DNA of 64,000 nt from Candidatus Omnitrophota bacterium (GTDB lineage Bacteria; Omnitrophota; Gorgyraeia; Gygaellales; UBA12090). Made by a program: the position numbers and the translations under genes. The notes beneath the pieces are model-generated. The model was not told where the DNA came from, made no database searches, and saw only the letters and a program-made list of their open reading frames with translations. This document shows, piece after piece, positions 1 through 61,946 of this stretch. Position 1 is the stretch's first letter; each line of letters begins with the position of its first letter. The stretch lies in the NCBI GenBank assembly GCA_030674475.1, contig JAUSCZ010000012.1, positions 319 to 64,318 of the forward strand, written 5' to 3'.

Positions 1-953
1 TCCATAAATACAGAAACTGGAAGAATTATTTAAAGGGCGAATACGATAAATATAAGGATAAATTCAGCATAGTGGTAACCGGAAGCGCCCGGCTGGATAT
101 ATATAGAAAAGGCGGAGATTCTCTCTTGGGCCGGTATCGCTCTTATTGCCTTCATCCTCTCTCGCTGGCGGAATTGCTGGGGGAGAACGCGGATTTTTCT
201 CAACTGAAAGGGCTTGTTTTTTCAGATAAAAAAAAGGAGTGCGCGGAATTGTGCGCGTCCCTGTTTAAGTTTGGGGGTTTCCCCGAGGTTTTTAGCCGGC
301 AGGAGGAGAGGGCGCTAAGGCGTTGGCACAATGAGAGGCTGGATCGGTTGATAAAAGAGGATGTCCGGGATATTGAAAATCTAAGGGACATTTCGGCCCT
401 GCAGGTATTAGCCGAGCTCCTCCCGGAGAAGGCGGGTTCGCTCTTTTCTCTTAATTCCTTGCGCGAAGATTTAAAGGTTACCCATAAAACCGTTTCTTCT
501 TGGGTAGAGATATTGGAGAGGTTTTATTACCATTTTCGGGTGTATCCTTTCCAAAACAGCAGGATAAAATCATTAAGAAAAGAGCCGAAGCTGTATTTGT
601 GGGATTGGTCGGAGATCAAGGATGAGGGGGTAAGGTTTGAGAATATGATGGCTTCCCATCTCTTGAAATTCTGCGGCTTTCTTTCCGACGCGCAAGGATA
701 TAAAGCGAAACTTTATTATCTCAGGGATAAGGAACAGCGAGAAGTTGATTTCCTGGTCAGTATTGATAATAAACCCTGGTTTTGCGTGGAGGTAAAATTA
801 TCCTCTAAGGAGTTACCTTCTTCGTTAAGGTATTTCGCGGATAGGCTAAAAGACCTCCTGGCTTTTGAGGTAGTAAAGGAAGAAGGAGTTGATTTTATCC
901 GGGACAACATCCGGGTGATCAGCGCGAGCAAGTTTCTAAGCGCGCTGGTATGA
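1..953 (+). CDS. AAA-family ATPase (COG1373/DUF4143-type), 5'-truncated by the window edge
   Basis: The reading frame is open from nt 3; the translation '...FSIVVTGSARLDIYRKGGDSLLGRYRS...CVEVK' resembles the C-terminal part of DUF4143 ATPases. A paralogue of the 45861..47054 gene. Confidence 0.55.
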   Translation, partial: HKYRNWKNYLKGEYDKYKDKFSIVVTGSARLDIYRKGGDSLLGRYRSYCLHPLSLAELLGENADFSQLKGLVFSDKKKECAELCASLFKFGGFPEVFSRQEERALRRWHNERLDRLIKEDVRDIENLRDISALQVLAELLPEKAGSLFSLNSLREDLKVTHKTVSSWVEILERFYYHFRVYPFQNSRIKSLRKEPKLYLWDWSEIKDEGVRFENMMASHLLKFCGFLSDAQGYKAKLYYLRDKEQREVDFLVSIDNKPWFCVEVKLSSKELPSSLRYFADRLKDLLAFEVVKEEGVDFIRDNIRVISASKFLSALV

Positions 954-6728: not shown

Positions 6729-7250
6729 ATGAGCTTAGTTCCAGTGGAAAGAATAGAGAGCAAGATTTTTTTGATTAGCGGCAAAAAGGTAATGTTGGAC
6801 AGGGATCTGGCAGAGCTTTATGGGGTAGAGACTAAGTATCTAAAGCGACAGGTGCGTAGAAATCTCAATAGATTCCCGCCCGATTTTATGTTTAAATTAT
6901 CAAAGCCGGAGTTTAAAAATTGGAGGTGCCAATTTGTTACCTCCAATTCTGCTGATAAAATGGGGTTGCGTTATCCGCCTTATGCCTTTAGTGAACCTGG
7001 AGTGGCTATGCTTTCTTCAGTTCTCAATAGCAACAGAGCTATTCATGTTAATATCCAGATTATCAGAACATTCATAAAATTACGACAGCTGCTTTTAACG
7101 CACGTAGAGCTTAAGCGAAAAATTGAGGATATGGAAGGGAAATACGACCAGCAGTTTAAGATTGTTTTTGAGGCGATAAGAAAGTTGTTGGAATCACCAA
7201 AGCCAGAACCGATGAAAAGGATAACGGGTTTTAGTACCAAAAGAGTTTGA
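6729..7250 (+). CDS. ORF6N-domain (KilA-N/antirepressor-like) DNA-binding protein
   Basis: 'IFLISGKKVMLDRDLAELYGVETKYLKRQVRRNLNRFPPDFMFKL' matches the ORF6N domain. Confidence 0.6.
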   Translation: MSLVPVERIESKIFLISGKKVMLDRDLAELYGVETKYLKRQVRRNLNRFPPDFMFKLSKPEFKNWRCQFVTSNSADKMGLRYPPYAFSEPGVAMLSSVLNSNRAIHVNIQIIRTFIKLRQLLLTHVELKRKIEDMEGKYDQQFKIVFEAIRKLLESPKPEPMKRITGFSTKRV

Positions 7251-7379
7251 GTTGGTCGCAAAATAGCTGTATTAAAACATTGAGGTCGGTATTATGTGGG
7301 CGTGTTTCCGGAAGATTTAGAGGAAACGGCAGAGATGCTGGCGCAGAAGCAACTTAATCTTTACAAGGAAAAACAACTT

Positions 7380-8594
7380 ATGAGAAAACATTTTTTGATC
7401 GTAAAAATCGCCTCTTTATTTATTATTTTTTTCTCATTTATGCGTTTTGCGGGAGCAGATACAATTTATTTGAAAAACGGCAAGAAATACAACTGCAGAA
7501 TAATTGATAAAACAGACAAATATATAAAAATAGATTTTTTAGGTGTGGTTTTGACCTATCAGATAGATGAGTTAGAACGAATTGAGTCTGCGAAAGAAGA
7601 GATTTCAGACTCAAAACAAGCTATGATAAAAAACCCTGTTTTTCAAAAAAATAGCATAGAAGCGAATTTTAAAAAAGGAACAGATTATTTAAAAGAGGGA
7701 AAATGGCAAGAGGCAGTAAAAGAATTTGAAAGAGTGATTTCTGTGGATACGTATCATGTTGGCGCGCATTTTAATTTGGGTTGTGCGTTTGCGTTGATGG
7801 AAGAGTATGAGAAGGCAAAAGAGGAATTTGAAAAAGTTTTGCCATTGGAAATGTTCCCTTTCAACGCCTTTTGTTATTTTAATATGGGGGGTCTTTATGC
7901 AAAAAAAGGAATTCTAAACAAAAGTTCAGGATATTTAAAAGAAGCGGCAGAATATTTTAAAAAAGCTGCTCAAGTGTTTCCGGGTTTTAACTTGGCAAGA
8001 GATTATGCCGCGCATTCGCAATTAATAATGGCTGTATTTGATACGGGCGGAGATATCGAACATATAGCGTTTAGCGTAGCAGAAACAGGAACTCCTCCAG
8101 ATTCAGCAATATTTCTATCAAAAGCTGATAGTATGGGAGACAAGGAAAATTTGGTATATCTTTTTGGTGCGGATAGCCCTCCGATGGTGTATTTCCATAG
8201 AAGTCCATCTTGTTATTACTTGACCTGTTCTTCAAAAATAGATGTTCAGAATCTTGCAAACATTGCTCAAGAAGAATTTACTTGTTTAGAAAATATAATA
8301 GATTTGGTAGAAAAAGAGGATAGATTTAACAAAATGATTAAGTGGAATTCATTTATAATATTATCTGCTTCTTATCGCGACAAAAATGATTTTAACAAAG
8401 CTGTTGAATTTGGAGAAAAAGCGATAGCGTTGGGCTTGCGCCTTTCTTCAGAATACATACATTTAGCAAACCTCTATTTTTACAAAAAAGATTATATAAA
8501 GGCTAAACAATTAGCAGAAGAGGCATTAAAGATTAATCCTGATAACACACAATTACGTAAAACAGCCGAGGAAATTATACAGGCAGTTTCTTAA
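7380..8594 (+). CDS. Membrane-anchored TPR-repeat protein
   Basis: N-terminal hydrophobic segment 'IVKIASLFIIFFSF', then TPR-like repeats (WQEAVKEFERVI..., YIKAKQLAEEALKINPDN). The start was chosen at the Met preceding the TM segment. Confidence 0.5.
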   Translation: MRKHFLIVKIASLFIIFFSFMRFAGADTIYLKNGKKYNCRIIDKTDKYIKIDFLGVVLTYQIDELERIESAKEEISDSKQAMIKNPVFQKNSIEANFKKGTDYLKEGKWQEAVKEFERVISVDTYHVGAHFNLGCAFALMEEYEKAKEEFEKVLPLEMFPFNAFCYFNMGGLYAKKGILNKSSGYLKEAAEYFKKAAQVFPGFNLARDYAAHSQLIMAVFDTGGDIEHIAFSVAETGTPPDSAIFLSKADSMGDKENLVYLFGADSPPMVYFHRSPSCYYLTCSSKIDVQNLANIAQEEFTCLENIIDLVEKEDRFNKMIKWNSFIILSASYRDKNDFNKAVEFGEKAIALGLRLSSEYIHLANLYFYKKDYIKAKQLAEEALKINPDNTQLRKTAEEIIQAVS

Positions 8595-8623
8595 TGCCAA
8601 GAGTATTAATAATTTATTCTTAC

Positions 8624-8695
8624 GCGCCTGTGGCCCAACGGATAGGGCAGCAGCCTCCGAAGCTGCTGGTGCAGGTTCAATTCCTGCCAGGCGCA
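8624..8695 (+). tRNA. tRNA-Arg (anticodon CCG)
   Basis: Manual cloverleaf fold: acceptor GCGCCTG/CAGGCGC, anticodon loop CTCCGAA, T-arm GCAGG-TTCAATT-CCTGC. No CCA is encoded. Confidence 0.8.
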
Positions 8696-8708
8696 ATACT
8701 TATAAAAA

Positions 8709-8875
8709 GGAATTGAACAAAAGGGGAGTTTGAGGGGAAAAGGTGATTTTCACCTCAAGAATCGCTTCTTTGTTTACGCTGCGGGGTGACAGCGAACCGC
8801 CGTAGGCGGTGAGCGTCATTAGGGGCAGGAGGCCCATATGATAAGTTCAATTCCTGCCAGGCGCAGTAATACAGA
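8709..8875 (+). ncRNA. tRNA-linked structured element, copy 1 (T-arm complement ... conserved core ... duplicated tRNA-Arg 3' end)
   Basis: It begins GGAATTGAAC, the reverse complement of the tRNA-Arg T-loop region. A ~120-nt core is ~90% identical to 18091..18249. It ends with the 21-nt copy GTTCAATTCCTGCCAGGCGCA of the tRNA 3' end. Confidence 0.5.
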
Positions 8876-9011
8876 ACTAAGAGTTAAAAATTAAGAGCTA
8901 AGATCGGGCTTGGTAGCAGTTTTTGAAAAAAGTGGAGTGATTTACCCATATAATCGGTAAAATTAAGGTAAAAGTGGGGCTAACATTAGTTTTTTACGGT
9001 TTAGGGGAGCG

Positions 9012-17783: not shown

Positions 17784-17857
17784 GGGCGGTTAGTTCAGCT
17801 GGTTAGAATGCATGATTTACATTCATGAGGTCACAGGTTCAAGTCCTGTACCGCCCA
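17784..17857 (+). tRNA. tRNA-Val (anticodon TAC)
   Basis: Manual fold: acceptor GGGCGGT/ACCGCCC, anticodon loop TTTACAT, T-arm ACAGG-TTCAAGT-CCTGT. Confidence 0.8.
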
Positions 17858-17999
17858 TTAATACAGAACTAAGATTTAAGAATTAAAAAGGCTGAACTGG
17901 CAGAAAAAAAAAGAAAACATTGAAGTTATTAAAATTTTGAGTACAATAATAACATCTCTTTCGCAGTTCTTAGCTCTAAATTCTTAGTTCTGCTTTATT

Positions 18000-18075
18000 G
18001 GGGTCGTGGTGTAGCCTGGTTTAACACATCGCCCTGTCACGGCGAAGACCGCGGGTTCAAATCCCGTCGACCCCG
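18000..18075 (+). tRNA. tRNA-Asp (anticodon GTC)
   Basis: Manual fold: acceptor GGGGTCG/CGACCCC, anticodon loop CTGTCAC, T-arm GCGGG-TTCAAAT-CCCGT. Confidence 0.8.
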
Positions 18076-18090
18076 TTAAACCTAAATTAA

Positions 18091-18249
18091 GGGATTTGAA
18101 CAAAAGGGGAGTTTGGGGGGAAAAGGTGATTTTCCCCCCAAGAATCGCTTCTTTGTTTACGCCACGGGGTGACAGCGAACCGCCGCAGGCGGTGAGCGTC
18201 ATTAGGGGCAAGGAGCCCCTATGAAAAGTTCAAATCCCGTCGACCCCAC
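18091..18249 (+). ncRNA. tRNA-linked structured element, copy 2 (T-arm complement ... conserved core ... duplicated tRNA-Asp 3' end)
   Basis: It begins GGGATTTGAAC, the reverse complement of the tRNA-Asp T-loop. The core is ~90% identical to copy 1, with a compensatory change in the GGGGGG/CCCCCC hairpin. It ends GTTCAAATCCCGTCGACCCC, a copy of the tRNA-Asp 3' end. Confidence 0.5.
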
Positions 18250-18336
18250 TATAAACAACATAACCGCGAATTCTCTCGCGGTTTTTTGTTTTGATAAAAC
18301 ATGAAAATGGTGTATAATAATTAAAATAGGCTAAAT

Positions 18337-36642: not shown

Positions 36643-37295
36643 GGTGTTTTATTTATATCTAGACGAAAGCGGTGATTTGGGGGTTTGATTTTGTTACTAA
36701 GAAACCCTCAAAATTCTTCACTATCATGGTGCTCGTGCTGAAAGGACAGGATAAGAACCGCGCGCTTATTAATGCGGTAAAGCATACATTAAGGCGCAAG
36801 TTAGGGAAAAGGAAGCTGTTCAAGAGCATTGGCTGCGAATTAAAGGCAAGCAGGGTGTCTATTGAAATTAAAAAGTATTTCTACGACCAGGTCAAGGGGT
36901 TGGATTTCAAATTGTATACGTTGACTCTCAACAAGAAAAGGGTGTATCAAAGCTTAATGCAAGAAAAGGAGAGAATTTATAATTACCTCGCCCGCTTAGT
37001 GTTGGATAAGATAAGTTTTGATAATGCTGAAGTCAGGGTTACGCTGATAGTGGACAAAAGCAAGGGTAAGCCTGAAATTTCCGAATTCAATTCATATATC
37101 TTTAGGCAGATTCAGGCAAAAATTGATCCCAAGATACCATTAGATATTGAGCATGCGTTATCGCATGAGAACTTGGGTTTGCAAGCAGTGGATATGTTTA
37201 CTTGGGGGATATTCAGAAAATATGAGAGGAAAGACTTTGGGTGGTTCAGGGTATTTGAGAGCAAGATGGCTTACGATGATGTTTATCTACCATAA
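36643..37295 (+). pseudogene. DUF3800-family gene with a +/-1 frameshift in a G5 tract
   Basis: GTG-initiated 'VFYLYLDESGDLGV*' (the N-terminal DUF3800 DESGD motif) stops at 36686. The rest continues in another frame as 'GFDFVTKKPSKFFTIMVLVLKG...GLQAVDMFTWGIFR'. A single-base change in GGGGG would fuse them. Confidence 0.6.
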
Positions 37296-37626
37296 AATAA
37301 AAATGAGCGCGCCTTACAGGTTCGTTAAGTTTAGGCTTTTGCCCACCATACGGAGGGGAACACCTAAACAACCCGTAACGGTCTTACCGCTCACTTATAA
37401 GTATACCCTATGAGAAGGTTTTGTCAAGATGAAAATTTGGATAAATAGTCGTTTCTGTGCAAAACGACGGGAAAACGACGGGGTCAGACCCGGACAGTAG
37501 ACATTAATTGGTAAAAGATTAATCGAATGACTATAATCGCGTTATGTCCAACTATGGGATAGTAGAAACATATTGACAATGTAACTACATTGTAGTATTA
37601 TTGTAATAGAATAAGAAAATGAACCA

Positions 37627-59558: not shown

Positions 59559-59659
59559 AAGGTGTATTATACTTAAGTTTTAGTGGTAAGCCAAGGGAAT
59601 TAAGATATAATAATAAAGCAGAATTAAGAATTAAGAGTTAAGAACTGAGAAAATAAATC

Positions 59660-60720: not shown

Positions 60721-60819
60721 GGCGGGAAAAAAAGGCAAACCATCCGTAAGGATGGGGCGCAAAGCTTCCGGTCCTAGAACGAATGAAGTGAATCGTAGGA
60801 TAGCGGAGCCGCCAAGGGG
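60721..60819 (+). promoter_or_regulatory. c-di-GMP-I (GEMM) riboswitch aptamer
   Basis: 'GGCAAACCAUCCGUAAGGAUGGGGCGCAAAGCUUCCGGUCCUAGAAC...UAGGAUAGCGGAGCCGCC' is near-identical in its conserved blocks to the Vibrio Vc2 aptamer ('GGCAAACCAUUCGAAAGAGUGGGACGCAAAGCCUCCGGCCUAAACC...UAGGUAGCGGGG'). P1 closes by GGCGG/CCGCC. Confidence 0.75.
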
Positions 60820-60959: not shown

Positions 60960-61946
60960 ATGAAAAACATAACCAATATTTTACTGATTTTGCTGGTAGT
61001 TCTGGTATTAGGATTTAGCGTTATAGTTATCTTAAATATCTTTACTCCCCCTCCCCCCAAACCGCAAATTTCGGCAGTCAGCCAACCAATAGAAGAGACT
61101 GCTATCCCAGAATCAGAAACAACAGCCCAGCCCAAAACCGAAACCCCAGAGGCATTACCTATTTCCGCGCCGCAACCCAAAGCTGAGGCTCCGCAAGCGG
61201 ATTTAGCCAAGCCCACAGAAGACCAAGCGCTTAAAGTTAAAATAGACTCCTTAATTGCTAAGATTAATTCTAATAATGCGGAGGAATCCTTAAAGGCCGA
61301 AGATGAGCTGGTCGAGTTGGGTAAGCCCGCGCTTAAGGAATTAGTCAACGTCTTAAATAATCTTGAGCCTTCAGAAGACATCTTGCGCCCGGAGATAGCC
61401 TTTATTTTAGGCAGGTTTGAGGATGCAGAGGCAGTTTCGGCATTGACACCTCTATTAGAGAATGAGAACTCCTATATCCGCAGAAATGCCATTAATTCTC
61501 TGAAAAGAATAAGAAGCCAGGAGGCAGTGTTTTCATTGACAGCGAGACTTTCCGATAAAGACGACTTAGTTCGAGAATCAGCCGTATCCGCCCTGGGAGA
61601 GATTAGCGGTTACGAAGCAACCGAGGACCTGATTAACCGGCTCAAGGATGAGAATGAAACTGAAGGGATAAAACTGGCGGCGGTGAAGGCCTTGGGTCAG
61701 ATTAAGGATGCCCGGGCTGTCAATGAGCTATCGGAACAGTTAAAAAACGAGTCCGATCCATTCTATAAAGATGAGGTAGTAGATTCTTTAGCTAATATAG
61801 GGGAGATGCGGGCGGTTTCAGGACTAAATGAATATCTTGACCAGCTTAAAAATAATAAACCAGAAAATGCCGGGGATTTATTCTTCTGGCAGAACAGCGT
61901 AGAGATAACTGAACAAGCTATCCAAAGATTGACCAGCGGCTCTTAA
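60960..61946 (+). CDS. Membrane-anchored HEAT-repeat (PBS-lyase HEAT-like) protein
   Basis: N-terminal TM, Pro/Glu-rich linker, then repeated 'EDILRPEIAFILGRFEDAEAVSALTPLLENENSYIRRNAINSL'-type HEAT units. Confidence 0.6.
   Translation: MKNITNILLILLVVLVLGFSVIVILNIFTPPPPKPQISAVSQPIEETAIPESETTAQPKTETPEALPISAPQPKAEAPQADLAKPTEDQALKVKIDSLIAKINSNNAEESLKAEDELVELGKPALKELVNVLNNLEPSEDILRPEIAFILGRFEDAEAVSALTPLLENENSYIRRNAINSLKRIRSQEAVFSLTARLSDKDDLVRESAVSALGEISGYEATEDLINRLKDENETEGIKLAAVKALGQIKDARAVNELSEQLKNESDPFYKDEVVDSLANIGEMRAVSGLNEYLDQLKNNKPENAGDLFFWQNSVEITEQAIQRLTSGS

Follow-up and report, generated by a model that had tools for sequence, protein, structure and literature searches.

A candidate mobile element of about 170 bp at the T-loop of two tRNA genes in a Candidatus Omnitrophota bacterium

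What are the short segments that follow two different tRNA genes in a genome of Candidatus Omnitrophota, and how did they come to lie there? The question arises in a stretch of 64,000 nucleotides (nt) of contig JAUSCZ010000012.1 (assembly GCA_030674475.1), referred to here as the window, in which tRNA-Arg(CCG) and tRNA-Asp(GTC) are each followed by one copy of the same element. The initial annotation, which placed the first copy at 8709–8875, offered three possibilities: a mini mobile element that targets the T-arm of tRNAs, a tRNA-dependent regulatory RNA, or the remnants of integrases with swapped specificities. Based on a comparison with relatives, we consider that the element is very probably a mobile insertion, placed at the same point in both tRNA genes.

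CarA homologues place the organism in Candidatus Omnitrophota, and contigs encoding CarA proteins 82–93% identical to that of the window were taken as relatives. Local synteny was kept in them, the gene order common to the window and the relatives being pyrR, pyrB, pyrC, an MJ0043_C protein gene, tRNA-Arg, carA, and carB, and then tRNA-Val and tRNA-Asp. In these contigs, an identical tRNA-Arg is followed directly by the trailer TAAATACAGAGTTAAGAG... or GTAAAACAGAGATAAGAG..., as is found after position 8865 of the window. These empty sites were read base by base in L010–L013, L016, L019, and L020, and by BLAST in L014 and L015. The empty sites at tRNA-Asp (L010 and L011, read base by base) run ...GACCCCG-CCA-TAAACAACATAAACCGCGAAATCTCTCGCGG, with the terminator following, and are collinear with the window from 18248 onward, where the sequence after the downstream repeat is ...GACCCC-ACTA-TAAACAACATAACCGCGAATTCTCTCGCGG. 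Four further contigs (L141–L144) carry tRNA-Arg, and a covariance model of the element gave no match there. From the empty sites, the Arg copy is best delimited as a 170-nt insertion at 8696–8865, which replaces the span first annotated, and the Asp copy is a 173-nt insertion at 18076–18248. The tRNA genes and the parts of the two copies are as follows.

8624–8695, plus strand: intact tRNA-Arg(CCG), found by ARAGORN and by Rfam (tRNA, 71.4 bits); identical to tRNA-Arg in the relatives
8675–8695, plus strand: upstream direct repeat of the Arg copy (G53 to A73), the last 21 nt of tRNA-Arg, GTTCAATTCCTGCCAGGCGCA
8696–8707, plus strand: AT-rich spacer of the Arg copy, 12 nt, ATACTTATAAAA; not conserved between the copies in the alignment
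8708–8718, plus strand: anti-T of the Arg copy, AGGAATTGAAC, the exact reverse complement of G53–T63 of tRNA-Arg, GTTCAATTCCT
8719–8844, plus strand: core of the Arg copy, 126 nt, 91.3% identical to the Asp copy and 88.1% identical to a third copy (L018, described below)
8845–8865, plus strand: downstream copy of the tRNA-Arg 3′ end, GTTCAATTCCTGCCAGGCGCA, an exact repeat; its first 11 nt are the 3′ strand of helix P1 (see below)
17784–17857: tRNA-Val, found by ARAGORN and Rfam
18000–18075, plus strand: intact tRNA-Asp(GTC), ending at G18075; found by ARAGORN and Rfam and compared with the relatives
18055–18074, plus strand: upstream direct repeat of the Asp copy, GTTCAAATCCCGTCGACCCC; G18075 is the discriminator base
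18076–18090, plus strand: spacer of the Asp copy, 15 nt, TTAAACCTAAATTAA, read from the sequence
18091–18101, plus strand: anti-T of the Asp copy, GGGATTTGAAC, complementary to GTTCAAATCCC of tRNA-Asp
18102–18227, plus strand: core of the Asp copy, found with the covariance model (190 bits)
18228–18247, plus strand: downstream copy of the tRNA-Asp 3′ end, GTTCAAATCCCGTCGACCCC, followed by ACTA-TAAACAAC..., where the relatives have GCCA-TAAACAAC...
18262–18283: native terminator, beyond the downstream Asp repeat

Both copies follow a common plan: an AT-rich spacer, an 11-nt segment complementary to the T-loop region (the anti-T), a core of 126 nt, and a 20–21-nt copy of the tRNA that runs from G53 to the acceptor end. 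The insertion point is the 5′ edge of the T-loop, between positions 52 and 53 and just before GTTC, in two different tRNA genes. The working tRNA-Asp continues into G-TTA-AAC, which is element DNA, and the tRNA remnant continues into the syntenic trailer and the terminator; at tRNA-Arg, the native trailer comes directly after 8865. The working tRNA is completed by the upstream repeat, and the native end has been displaced and constitutes the downstream repeat, next to the native trailer. The Arg repeats are identical at 21 of 21 positions, which indicates that this insertion is recent; the Asp repeats are identical at 20 of 20 positions, with a difference at the discriminator base. Because the empty sites in close relatives are precise, both copies are best regarded as recent insertions, and not as scars or as a conserved regulatory RNA. 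A tRNA-dependent regulatory RNA is neither needed nor supported, since the element is absent from close relatives and a scan of its sequence found no promoter inside it. The suggestion of a mini mobile element that targets the T-arm, in contrast, gains support from the empty sites at both tRNAs, from the lack of an Rfam match, and from ends that match each tRNA.

Several features described in the initial annotation were recovered on closer comparison. The reverse complement of the T-loop region at the start of the element is present, although it spans 11 nt and not 10; a 10-nt complement of the start of the repeat arose by chance in 76 of 200,000 shuffles of the Arg element and in 43 of 200,000 shuffles of the Asp element. 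The 21-nt direct copy of the tRNA-Arg 3′ end is indeed present at 8845–8865, and the reported core identity of about 90% was measured as 115/126 (91.3%), whereas the spacers are not confidently alignable. The ends had also been called copy-specific: this holds for the termini matched to tRNA-Asp, but the anti-T differs at only two positions between the copies, because T-loops are so conserved. In the Arg copy, the spacer and the acceptor strand form the loop of a hairpin between the T-loop and the anti-T. Within the window, the core motifs occur at these two sites only, with 0 expected by chance. No ORF (open reading frame) of note was found in the 170-nt element, the short ORFs of the copies being unrelated and sharing only residues encoded by the T-loop. 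The AGGAG noted 7 nt before an ATG, read as the Shine–Dalgarno site of a small ORF, was dropped because it is not conserved, the third copy having AGAGA.

The arrangement is a textbook layout of attL and attR for the T-loop class of tRNA integration, which Williams reportedly defined in 2002: element DNA restores the tRNA, and the remnant adjoins the native flank. On this ground the 170 bp could be a mini-attP, that is, the identity segment from G53 to position 73 with its arms, excised as a small double-stranded circle and reintegrated in trans by a classical tRNA-specific tyrosine (or serine) integrase supplied by a resident island or phage. It would then be an extreme cis-mobilizable element, and its hairpins would be protein-binding palindromes or incidental. 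Minimal attP sites measure ∼200–250 bp, which is near the size of the element, and its spacer resembles a captured tRNA trailer, the Asp spacer resembling the trailer of tRNA-Asp. We nevertheless consider a mini-attP rather unlikely. It leaves the covarying anti-T without a role, and the right half-site has no inverted counterpart in the sequence to the left of the crossover (ATGATAAG / ATGAAAAG, with the left half ATGAWAAG); the double-stranded core site would thus be asymmetric. Arm-type direct repeats kept in all three known copies were not found (GGTGA occurs three times and is not kept in the third copy), and the compensatory changes reported below point to base pairing rather than to half-site recognition. 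Moreover, Pfam scans of 30 ORFs of the window detected no integrase, transposase, reverse transcriptase, or HUH protein, and to our knowledge no integrase-dependent element this small has been described.

The third copy (P0121) was found on a 565-nt ENA contig (L018, ERZ4903185), beside a decayed tRNA-Asp end, by querying a spurious ORF over the minus strand of the core against 5.8 billion protein clusters; an exhaustive HMMER search of 1.84 billion representatives with the spurious core ORF gave no copies beyond P0121. L018 has the same boundaries as the window copies, with the anti-T AGGATTTGAAC, the core, and the T-loop copy in order. Core identities among the three copies are 91, 88, and 87%, L018 being 87–88% identical to both window copies. 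Its tRNA-Asp end has a 2-nt deletion (GTTCAAATCCC--CGACCCCG) and is followed by G-TTA-TAAACAACATAAACC, the tRNA-Asp trailer. No tRNA was found within the 375 nt upstream of the element in L018, and even so this copy keeps the anti-T, the copy of the tRNA-Asp T-loop and acceptor strand, and the trailer; no tRNA-less copy with unmatched ends was encountered. As a separate observation, CGGGGTGAC (window 8782–8790 and 18165–18173) is present in all three cores and is complementary, with one bulge, to the acceptor 3′ strand of tRNA-Asp, GTC(G)ACCCCG. It is unchanged in the Arg copy and may be a relic of an Asp-specific ancestor, or due to chance.

The upstream part of L018 consists of an AT-rich segment and ∼200 nt of GC-rich nested hairpins (95–470, minus strand; folding z = −6.2), one of which has a tandem G-A internal loop like that of helix P4 below. 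This stretch gave no match in Rfam or, by BLAST with word size 11, among phages and plasmids. The hairpins could be a structured RNA or part of an autonomous parent element. They are followed by CCATAAATAACACATAAGG, which resembles the CCA and trailer of tRNA-Asp, and the Asp spacer of the window can be read as the two ends of a longer stretch of the L018 type (TTA-AAC ... C-TAAAT-TAAGG). On that reading, the small copies may be deletion derivatives, or L018 may have taken a later insertion.

Such a reading of the Asp spacer, together with the fact that the 12–15-nt spacer of the window copies corresponds in L018 to at least 375 nt of other DNA, would also suit an explanation without mobility, in which the copies are scars left by deletion from larger integrated elements or artefacts of assembly or duplication. 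This is very improbable. Two loci of one genome agree in architecture and boundaries and have repeats that are perfect or nearly so; compensatory changes accompany the conservation of the core; and independent deletions would not stop at identical points. Furthermore, both junctions of the Arg copy are matched base for base by two independent Logan contigs from SRR13727527 (L002 and L148). These contigs break inside the core with a 30-nt overlap (L002 1–30 and L148 3458–3487, equal to window 8753–8782), as expected where an assembly graph branches at a repeat. In this region the stretch of identical bases common to the Arg and Asp copies is no longer than 24, and the branch therefore hints at further copies in SRR13727527. 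The integrase remnants with swapped specificities proposed in the initial annotation are likewise unlikely as stated, since the three copies share boundaries and their hairpins are kept by compensatory changes.

Beyond these three copies, the element was not recognized in the collections searched. As the initial annotation had supposed, the core belongs to no RNA family in Rfam: no match was obtained at the gathering score in the window, a search at E ≤ 10 over 8600–8920 returned only the tRNA and noise, and L018 gave none. The element had no BLAST match (word size 11) among 50,697 phage records or 72,556 plasmid records. An exact pattern of the P4 region had one chance match among genomes representing each GTDB species, in a coding region of Verrucomicrobiia (L001), and seven chance matches in JGI metagenomes, all in coding-looking sequence. 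In IMG/VR, three core patterns gave one chance match, at the start of an ORF, and a loose scan for T-loop inverted repeats gave more than 100 loci, in which the single 10/11 complement was an ordinary tRNA with a chance match upstream. Scanning the window and 21 Omnitrophota loci with the covariance model (R1) added no copies, and a full-text literature search returned no insertion sequence with the T-loop as its described target.

A consensus of five helices was obtained across the three copies. P1, formed by the anti-T and the T-loop copy (11 bp), closes a junction of hairpins, and the remaining helices are placed in the Arg copy as follows.

8722–8741 with 8747–8767: P2, a long hairpin, GRGGGGAAAA-GGTGA-TTTTCCCCYC
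8768–8773 with 8781–8786: P3, weak and doubtful, G-U-rich
8787–8801 with 8805–8818: P4, UGAC-A-GC-GA-ACCGCC / GGCGGU-GA-GC-GUCA, with a bulged A and tandem G-A
8820–8826 with 8832–8838: P5, UAGGGGC / GCCCCUA

Covariation among the copies had been proposed in the initial annotation, and four pairs, of which P1 has two and P2 and P4 one each, were found to be changed on both sides and still paired; the mean in shuffled alignments was 1.6. Four such pairs were reached in 13 of 500 column shuffles, and slid controls showed none. The G-C to A-T change seen earlier in the first hairpin is real, and all four changes are from one Watson–Crick pair to another, with no G-U intermediates. The anti-T covaries with the T-loop across the three copies (columns 6/145 and 2/149). 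A pair is broken by a single change in five cases, of which three are in L018. Variable columns make up 13 of 108 paired and 12 of 40 unpaired positions (Fisher p = 0.014). P1, P4, P5, and the upper part of P2 are Watson–Crick helices, and G-T wobbles occur only in the lower part of P2 and in the weak P3. An AGGGG/CCCCU helix is common to P2 and P5, which are separated from the core boundaries by 13 and 9 nt. When folded as single-stranded DNA (ssDNA), P1, P2, P4, and P5 form on both strands (z −4.9 to −6.9). The corresponding z values for RNA are −4.8 and −5.3 for the two strands of the Arg copy and −6.2 for the plus strand of the Asp copy. This predicted fold is suggestive of a folded single strand, rather than of mere protein-binding sites on duplex DNA.

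Such a strand might be RNA. The element lies between the tRNA and the native terminator and is therefore probably transcribed as a tRNA trailer, and its core could act as a guide- or bridge-like RNA for a recombinase, as the template of a retroelement, or as a regulator of tRNA maturation, with RNA-dependent mobility. The strong plus-strand RNA folds (z = −4.8 and −6.2), several G-U pairs in the plus-strand model, and the RNA-like tandem G-A motif of P4 fit this explanation, which we nevertheless judge improbable. No Rfam family and, even at E ≤ 10, no ribozyme motif was detected, and the scanned ORFs included no reverse transcriptase or recombinase. The well-supported helices are purely Watson–Crick, as are the four kept changes. 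Whereas the guides of IS110 bridge RNAs are bipartite, a single target segment is covered here by both the anti-T and the T-loop copy, and the absence of the element from close relatives argues against a function in the host.

Alternatively, the folded strand could be an ssDNA substrate for a tyrosine recombinase, in the manner of CTXphi with XerCD or of attC with IntI, where the exchange of one strand into folded hairpin sites was reportedly described by Val and by Bouvier in 2005. The stem formed by the T-loop and the anti-T would mimic the double-stranded target, and the exchange of one strand would be followed by replication. The observed order (site, loop, inverted copy, body, site, native flank) is the order predicted, and both strands fold with P1 closed. 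However, the stem has only 11 bp and no pairs to the left of the crossover, where AAAAGG follows the anti-T and is not the complement of TATGAWAA; a one-sided stem of 11 bp leaves room for one recombinase arm and not for two. Inspection also led us to reject an integron attC, since the L-box positions are unpaired (AAAAGGGGAG vs. CCATATGATAA) and the R-box consensus (RYYYAAC / GTTRRRY) is matched at 5–6 of 7 positions, as in any T-loop. The chance that a tyrosine recombinase acts in this way is slim.

The explanation that we prefer, tentatively, is that of a non-autonomous, ORF-less mobile element of ∼170 bp that is moved in trans by way of a folded single strand and inserts site-specifically at tRNA T-loops. 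It consists of a variable module (T-loop copy, acceptor strand, AT-rich spacer, and anti-T) and the conserved, hairpin-rich 126-nt core. That it is mobilized in trans and bears its own replacement tRNA end is probable, and it is fairly likely that the folded single strand matters for its movement; an HUH-type enzyme as the driver, proposed by analogy, is a doubtful candidate. An element-borne 3′ end would restore the gene on insertion, and the insertion would thus not kill the tRNA. We take this end to be element-borne because the 12–15 nt that follow the working tRNA are unconserved and trailer-like; in addition, the start of the Asp spacer shares G-TTA with L018 and not with the native flank in the window. 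The 20–21-nt repeat can accordingly be read as a copy carried by the element rather than as a duplication, a reading favored by the unconserved spacer and the G-TTA junction. A plain target-site duplication is disfavored, as it predicts a conserved left end, yet the 12–15-nt left end is unconserved.

In the proposed mechanism, the folded strand, most likely ssDNA, would be acted on in trans by an enzyme encoded elsewhere, for which an HUH-type single-strand nuclease or transposase working by IS91 or IS200/IS605 logic ranks first among doubtful candidates, with a tRNA-specific integrase as its main rival. On the bottom strand, the flank ending in ...GAAC is followed by two subterminal hairpins and, at the other end, by a terminal hairpin (T-loop/anti-T) that itself ends in ...GAAC, a layout that by analogy corresponds to the formal IS91-family formula. 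The anti-T would keep the cleavage site in a hairpin, serve as a DNA guide for T-loops, or both. An excised Arg circle would carry the junction ...TATGATAA-GTTCAATTCCTGCCAGGCGCA-ATACTTAT..., and the restored empty site would read ...GGTGCAG-GTTCAATTCCTGCCAGGCGCA-GTAATACAG.... A bolder version, which we think unlikely, makes the element a DNA-guided single-strand transposon, whose 11-nt anti-T is a programmable guide that pairs both with the tRNA T-loop and with the end of the element itself. The guide would direct an enzyme, of the HUH type or another, to cut and join just before GTTC, and a change of the guide together with the carried tRNA end would retarget the element to another tRNA. Other candidate roles and origins were rejected. 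The core as a guide for the left side of the target was dropped, since the only Arg/Asp difference close to the tRNA-like stretch, TG versus CA, does not track the tRNA, the Asp-type L018 having TG. An origin of the anti-T by hairpin opening (P nucleotides) was dropped because the intervening sequence is not palindromic, and readings as group II intron domains 5/6 or as a retron were dismissed by inspection.

Several points weigh against movement in trans through a folded single strand. No HUH gene or other candidate enzyme was present among the scanned ORFs, and the GTTC at the junction is weak evidence because every T-loop has GTTC. No similarity to the ends of IS91, IS801, or ISCR was found, and the BLAST search of the 72,556 plasmids, assumed to include such elements, gave none. 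Restoration of a tRNA gene is known to us from thousands of integrase-driven elements, but from no HUH element. With just three known copies, the statistics of covariation (13/500 shuffles) are weak. In L018, at least 375 nt lie between the anti-T and any upstream tRNA, so a hairpin between the anti-T and an upstream T-loop copy would be long-range. Finally, the cores are roughly equidistant, the two Asp-type copies being no closer to each other than to the Arg-type copy. The proposed mechanism does not account for an exchange of the Arg and Asp modules, which differ as a block from the T-loop copy through the spacer to the anti-T: either the specificity module is readily swapped, or cores recombine between co-resident lineages.

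Other variable content was observed beside the same tRNA genes. The interval from the MJ0043_C gene to tRNA-Arg is occupied in the window by two genes, ORF6N (KilA-N/Rha-like) and TPR (6729–8594); the ORF6N gene is also found in L019, and both genes are missing in L010–L016, which is further variability beside tRNA-Arg. Between the tRNA-Arg trailer and carA, some relatives have genes for an EcoRV-like endonuclease and a D12-class methyltransferase and an unknown gene (L016 2427–5419; L020 306–3294; L150 3–1920), a restriction–modification insertion at the tRNA-Arg hotspot in which BLAST detected no tRNA repeat. Both tRNA-Arg and tRNA-Val are followed by a repeat motif, (A)CAGAACTAAGAG...TTAAGAGCTAAGA, which stands inverted before tRNA-Asp (window 17858–17998, also 8866–8905 and 59619–59637; five matches against 1.1 expected). 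In the relatives, an inverted CAGAACTAAGAG/TTAAGAGCTAAGA pair flanks a 121-aa 23S_rRNA_IVP (PF05635) gene between tRNA-Val and tRNA-Asp (L010 19134–19572), and a second 23S_rRNA_IVP gene lies between carA and carB. The window retains only ∼45 nt of the 3′ end of the former (∼17914–17960). These genes with inverted-repeat ends look like small mobile gene cassettes. An exact look-up of the protein encoded downstream of tRNA-Asp gave no record.

Farther away in the window, a DUF3800-V RNA (76.5 bits; 37300–37398, minus strand) adjoins a DUF3800 protein gene (36672–37295, plus strand). The same region has AbiEi/AbiEii and BrnT/CopG toxin–antitoxin pairs and a 1532-aa helicase-nuclease, and looks like a defence or mobile-gene island. 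A c-di-GMP-I-GGC riboswitch aptamer (60725–60817, plus strand; 59.7 bits against a gathering score of 59) lies upstream of the ORF at 60960–61946.

Transfer RNA genes are classic landing pads for large islands and phages. In the collections and literature that we searched, there was no ORF-less element of ∼170 bp that lands in the T-loop, rebuilds the tRNA, and pairs its copy of the target in a stem with the complement. If this stem is a recombination substrate or a guide, target specificity would be written in a few DNA bases and could be rewritten for another tRNA. This would bear on how integrative elements change their attachment sites and would provide a very small candidate module for programmable insertion. 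Should the anti-T prove to be a DNA guide, the element could be categorically new, as the smallest known self-contained site-specific integrating unit, and would extend the 4-nt guide principle of IS608 to 11 bp of Watson–Crick pairing. If an ordinary integrase drives it, the element would still be a marker of recent mobility and a minimal attP. For the phylum Omnitrophota, which is known almost exclusively from metagenomes, it affords a first view of active mobile DNA.

Among known systems, the integrative elements of the T-loop class and the related cis-mobilizable elements (CIMEs) are similar in that insertion occurs in the 3′ part of the tRNA, element DNA rebuilds the gene, and the direct repeat spans the T-loop and everything up to the acceptor end; like a CIME, the element has no recombination gene. 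At 170 bp, however, it is smaller by one to two orders of magnitude; it has no cargo, its hairpins are conserved, and its inverted copy of the T-loop covaries, with no integrase among the scanned ORFs. The CTXphi-type IMEX and integron attC sites share with it a single-strand hairpin that recreates a duplex target, and the integrated order fits the exchange of one strand; in the element, only one side of the putative crossover is covered by the stem, the site resembles neither dif nor attC, and the target is a tRNA T-loop. A bridge or seek RNA of the IS110/IS1111 type was rejected, because identical 11-nt stretches of the target are covered by the anti-T and by the T-loop copy, which pair with each other, and no recombinase was found among the scanned ORFs. 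A classical miniature inverted-repeat transposable element was also rejected: the only inverted repeat is derived from the target and differs between the copies, and the outer 12–15 nt are unconserved.

The IS200/IS605 family, with its PATEs and the TnpA of IS608, offers small ORF-less derivatives, subterminal hairpins, and precise excision. In IS608, an internal DNA guide is said to pair with the target and with the element end (Barabas, in 2008, and Guynet, in 2009, reportedly). A short internal guide that pairs with target and cleavage sites is a possible point of likeness, as is the sequence shared by element end and target, and by analogy the anti-T could play a similar part with 11 bp. 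The guides of that family are 4–5 nt long with non-canonical pairs, whereas the stem here is an 11-bp Watson–Crick helix; moreover, those elements have no tRNA-restoring segment, and no TnpA was seen among the window ORFs.

Elements of the IS91 family make no target duplication and have a GTTC/CTTG tetranucleotide next to oriIS, where one or two palindromes lie; the terIS cleavage site GTTC stands beside a subterminal palindrome. An ssDNA circle is the inserting form, the functional ends measure 89 and 82 bp, flanking DNA is often captured, and miniature derivatives of 229 nt occur (PMC13181058, PMC3189936). The element has no sequence similarity to IS91, IS801, or IS1294, and no Y2 transposase was detected among the 30 scanned ORFs of the window. 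Its repeat is 20–21 nt and not 4 nt, its targets are apparently tRNA T-loops only, and its terminal palindrome is built from the sequence of the target itself. On the side of likeness, the junction GTTC lies beside an end with two subterminal palindromes (P4 and P5, no more than 60 nt from the right junction), and GTTC and a palindrome, that of the T-loop and anti-T, also begin the other end. All three copies have GTTC directly after the core, at the right junction, and again as the first bases of the element-borne segment, although this agreement is weak evidence. The size of the element is near that of the two minimal ends, the variable flanking-like stretch fits the capture of adjacent DNA, and ssDNA hairpins would matter in both. 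As a non-autonomous site-specific integrating element, it belongs to a known category, and its size, its lack of genes, and its target-mimicking stem are new.

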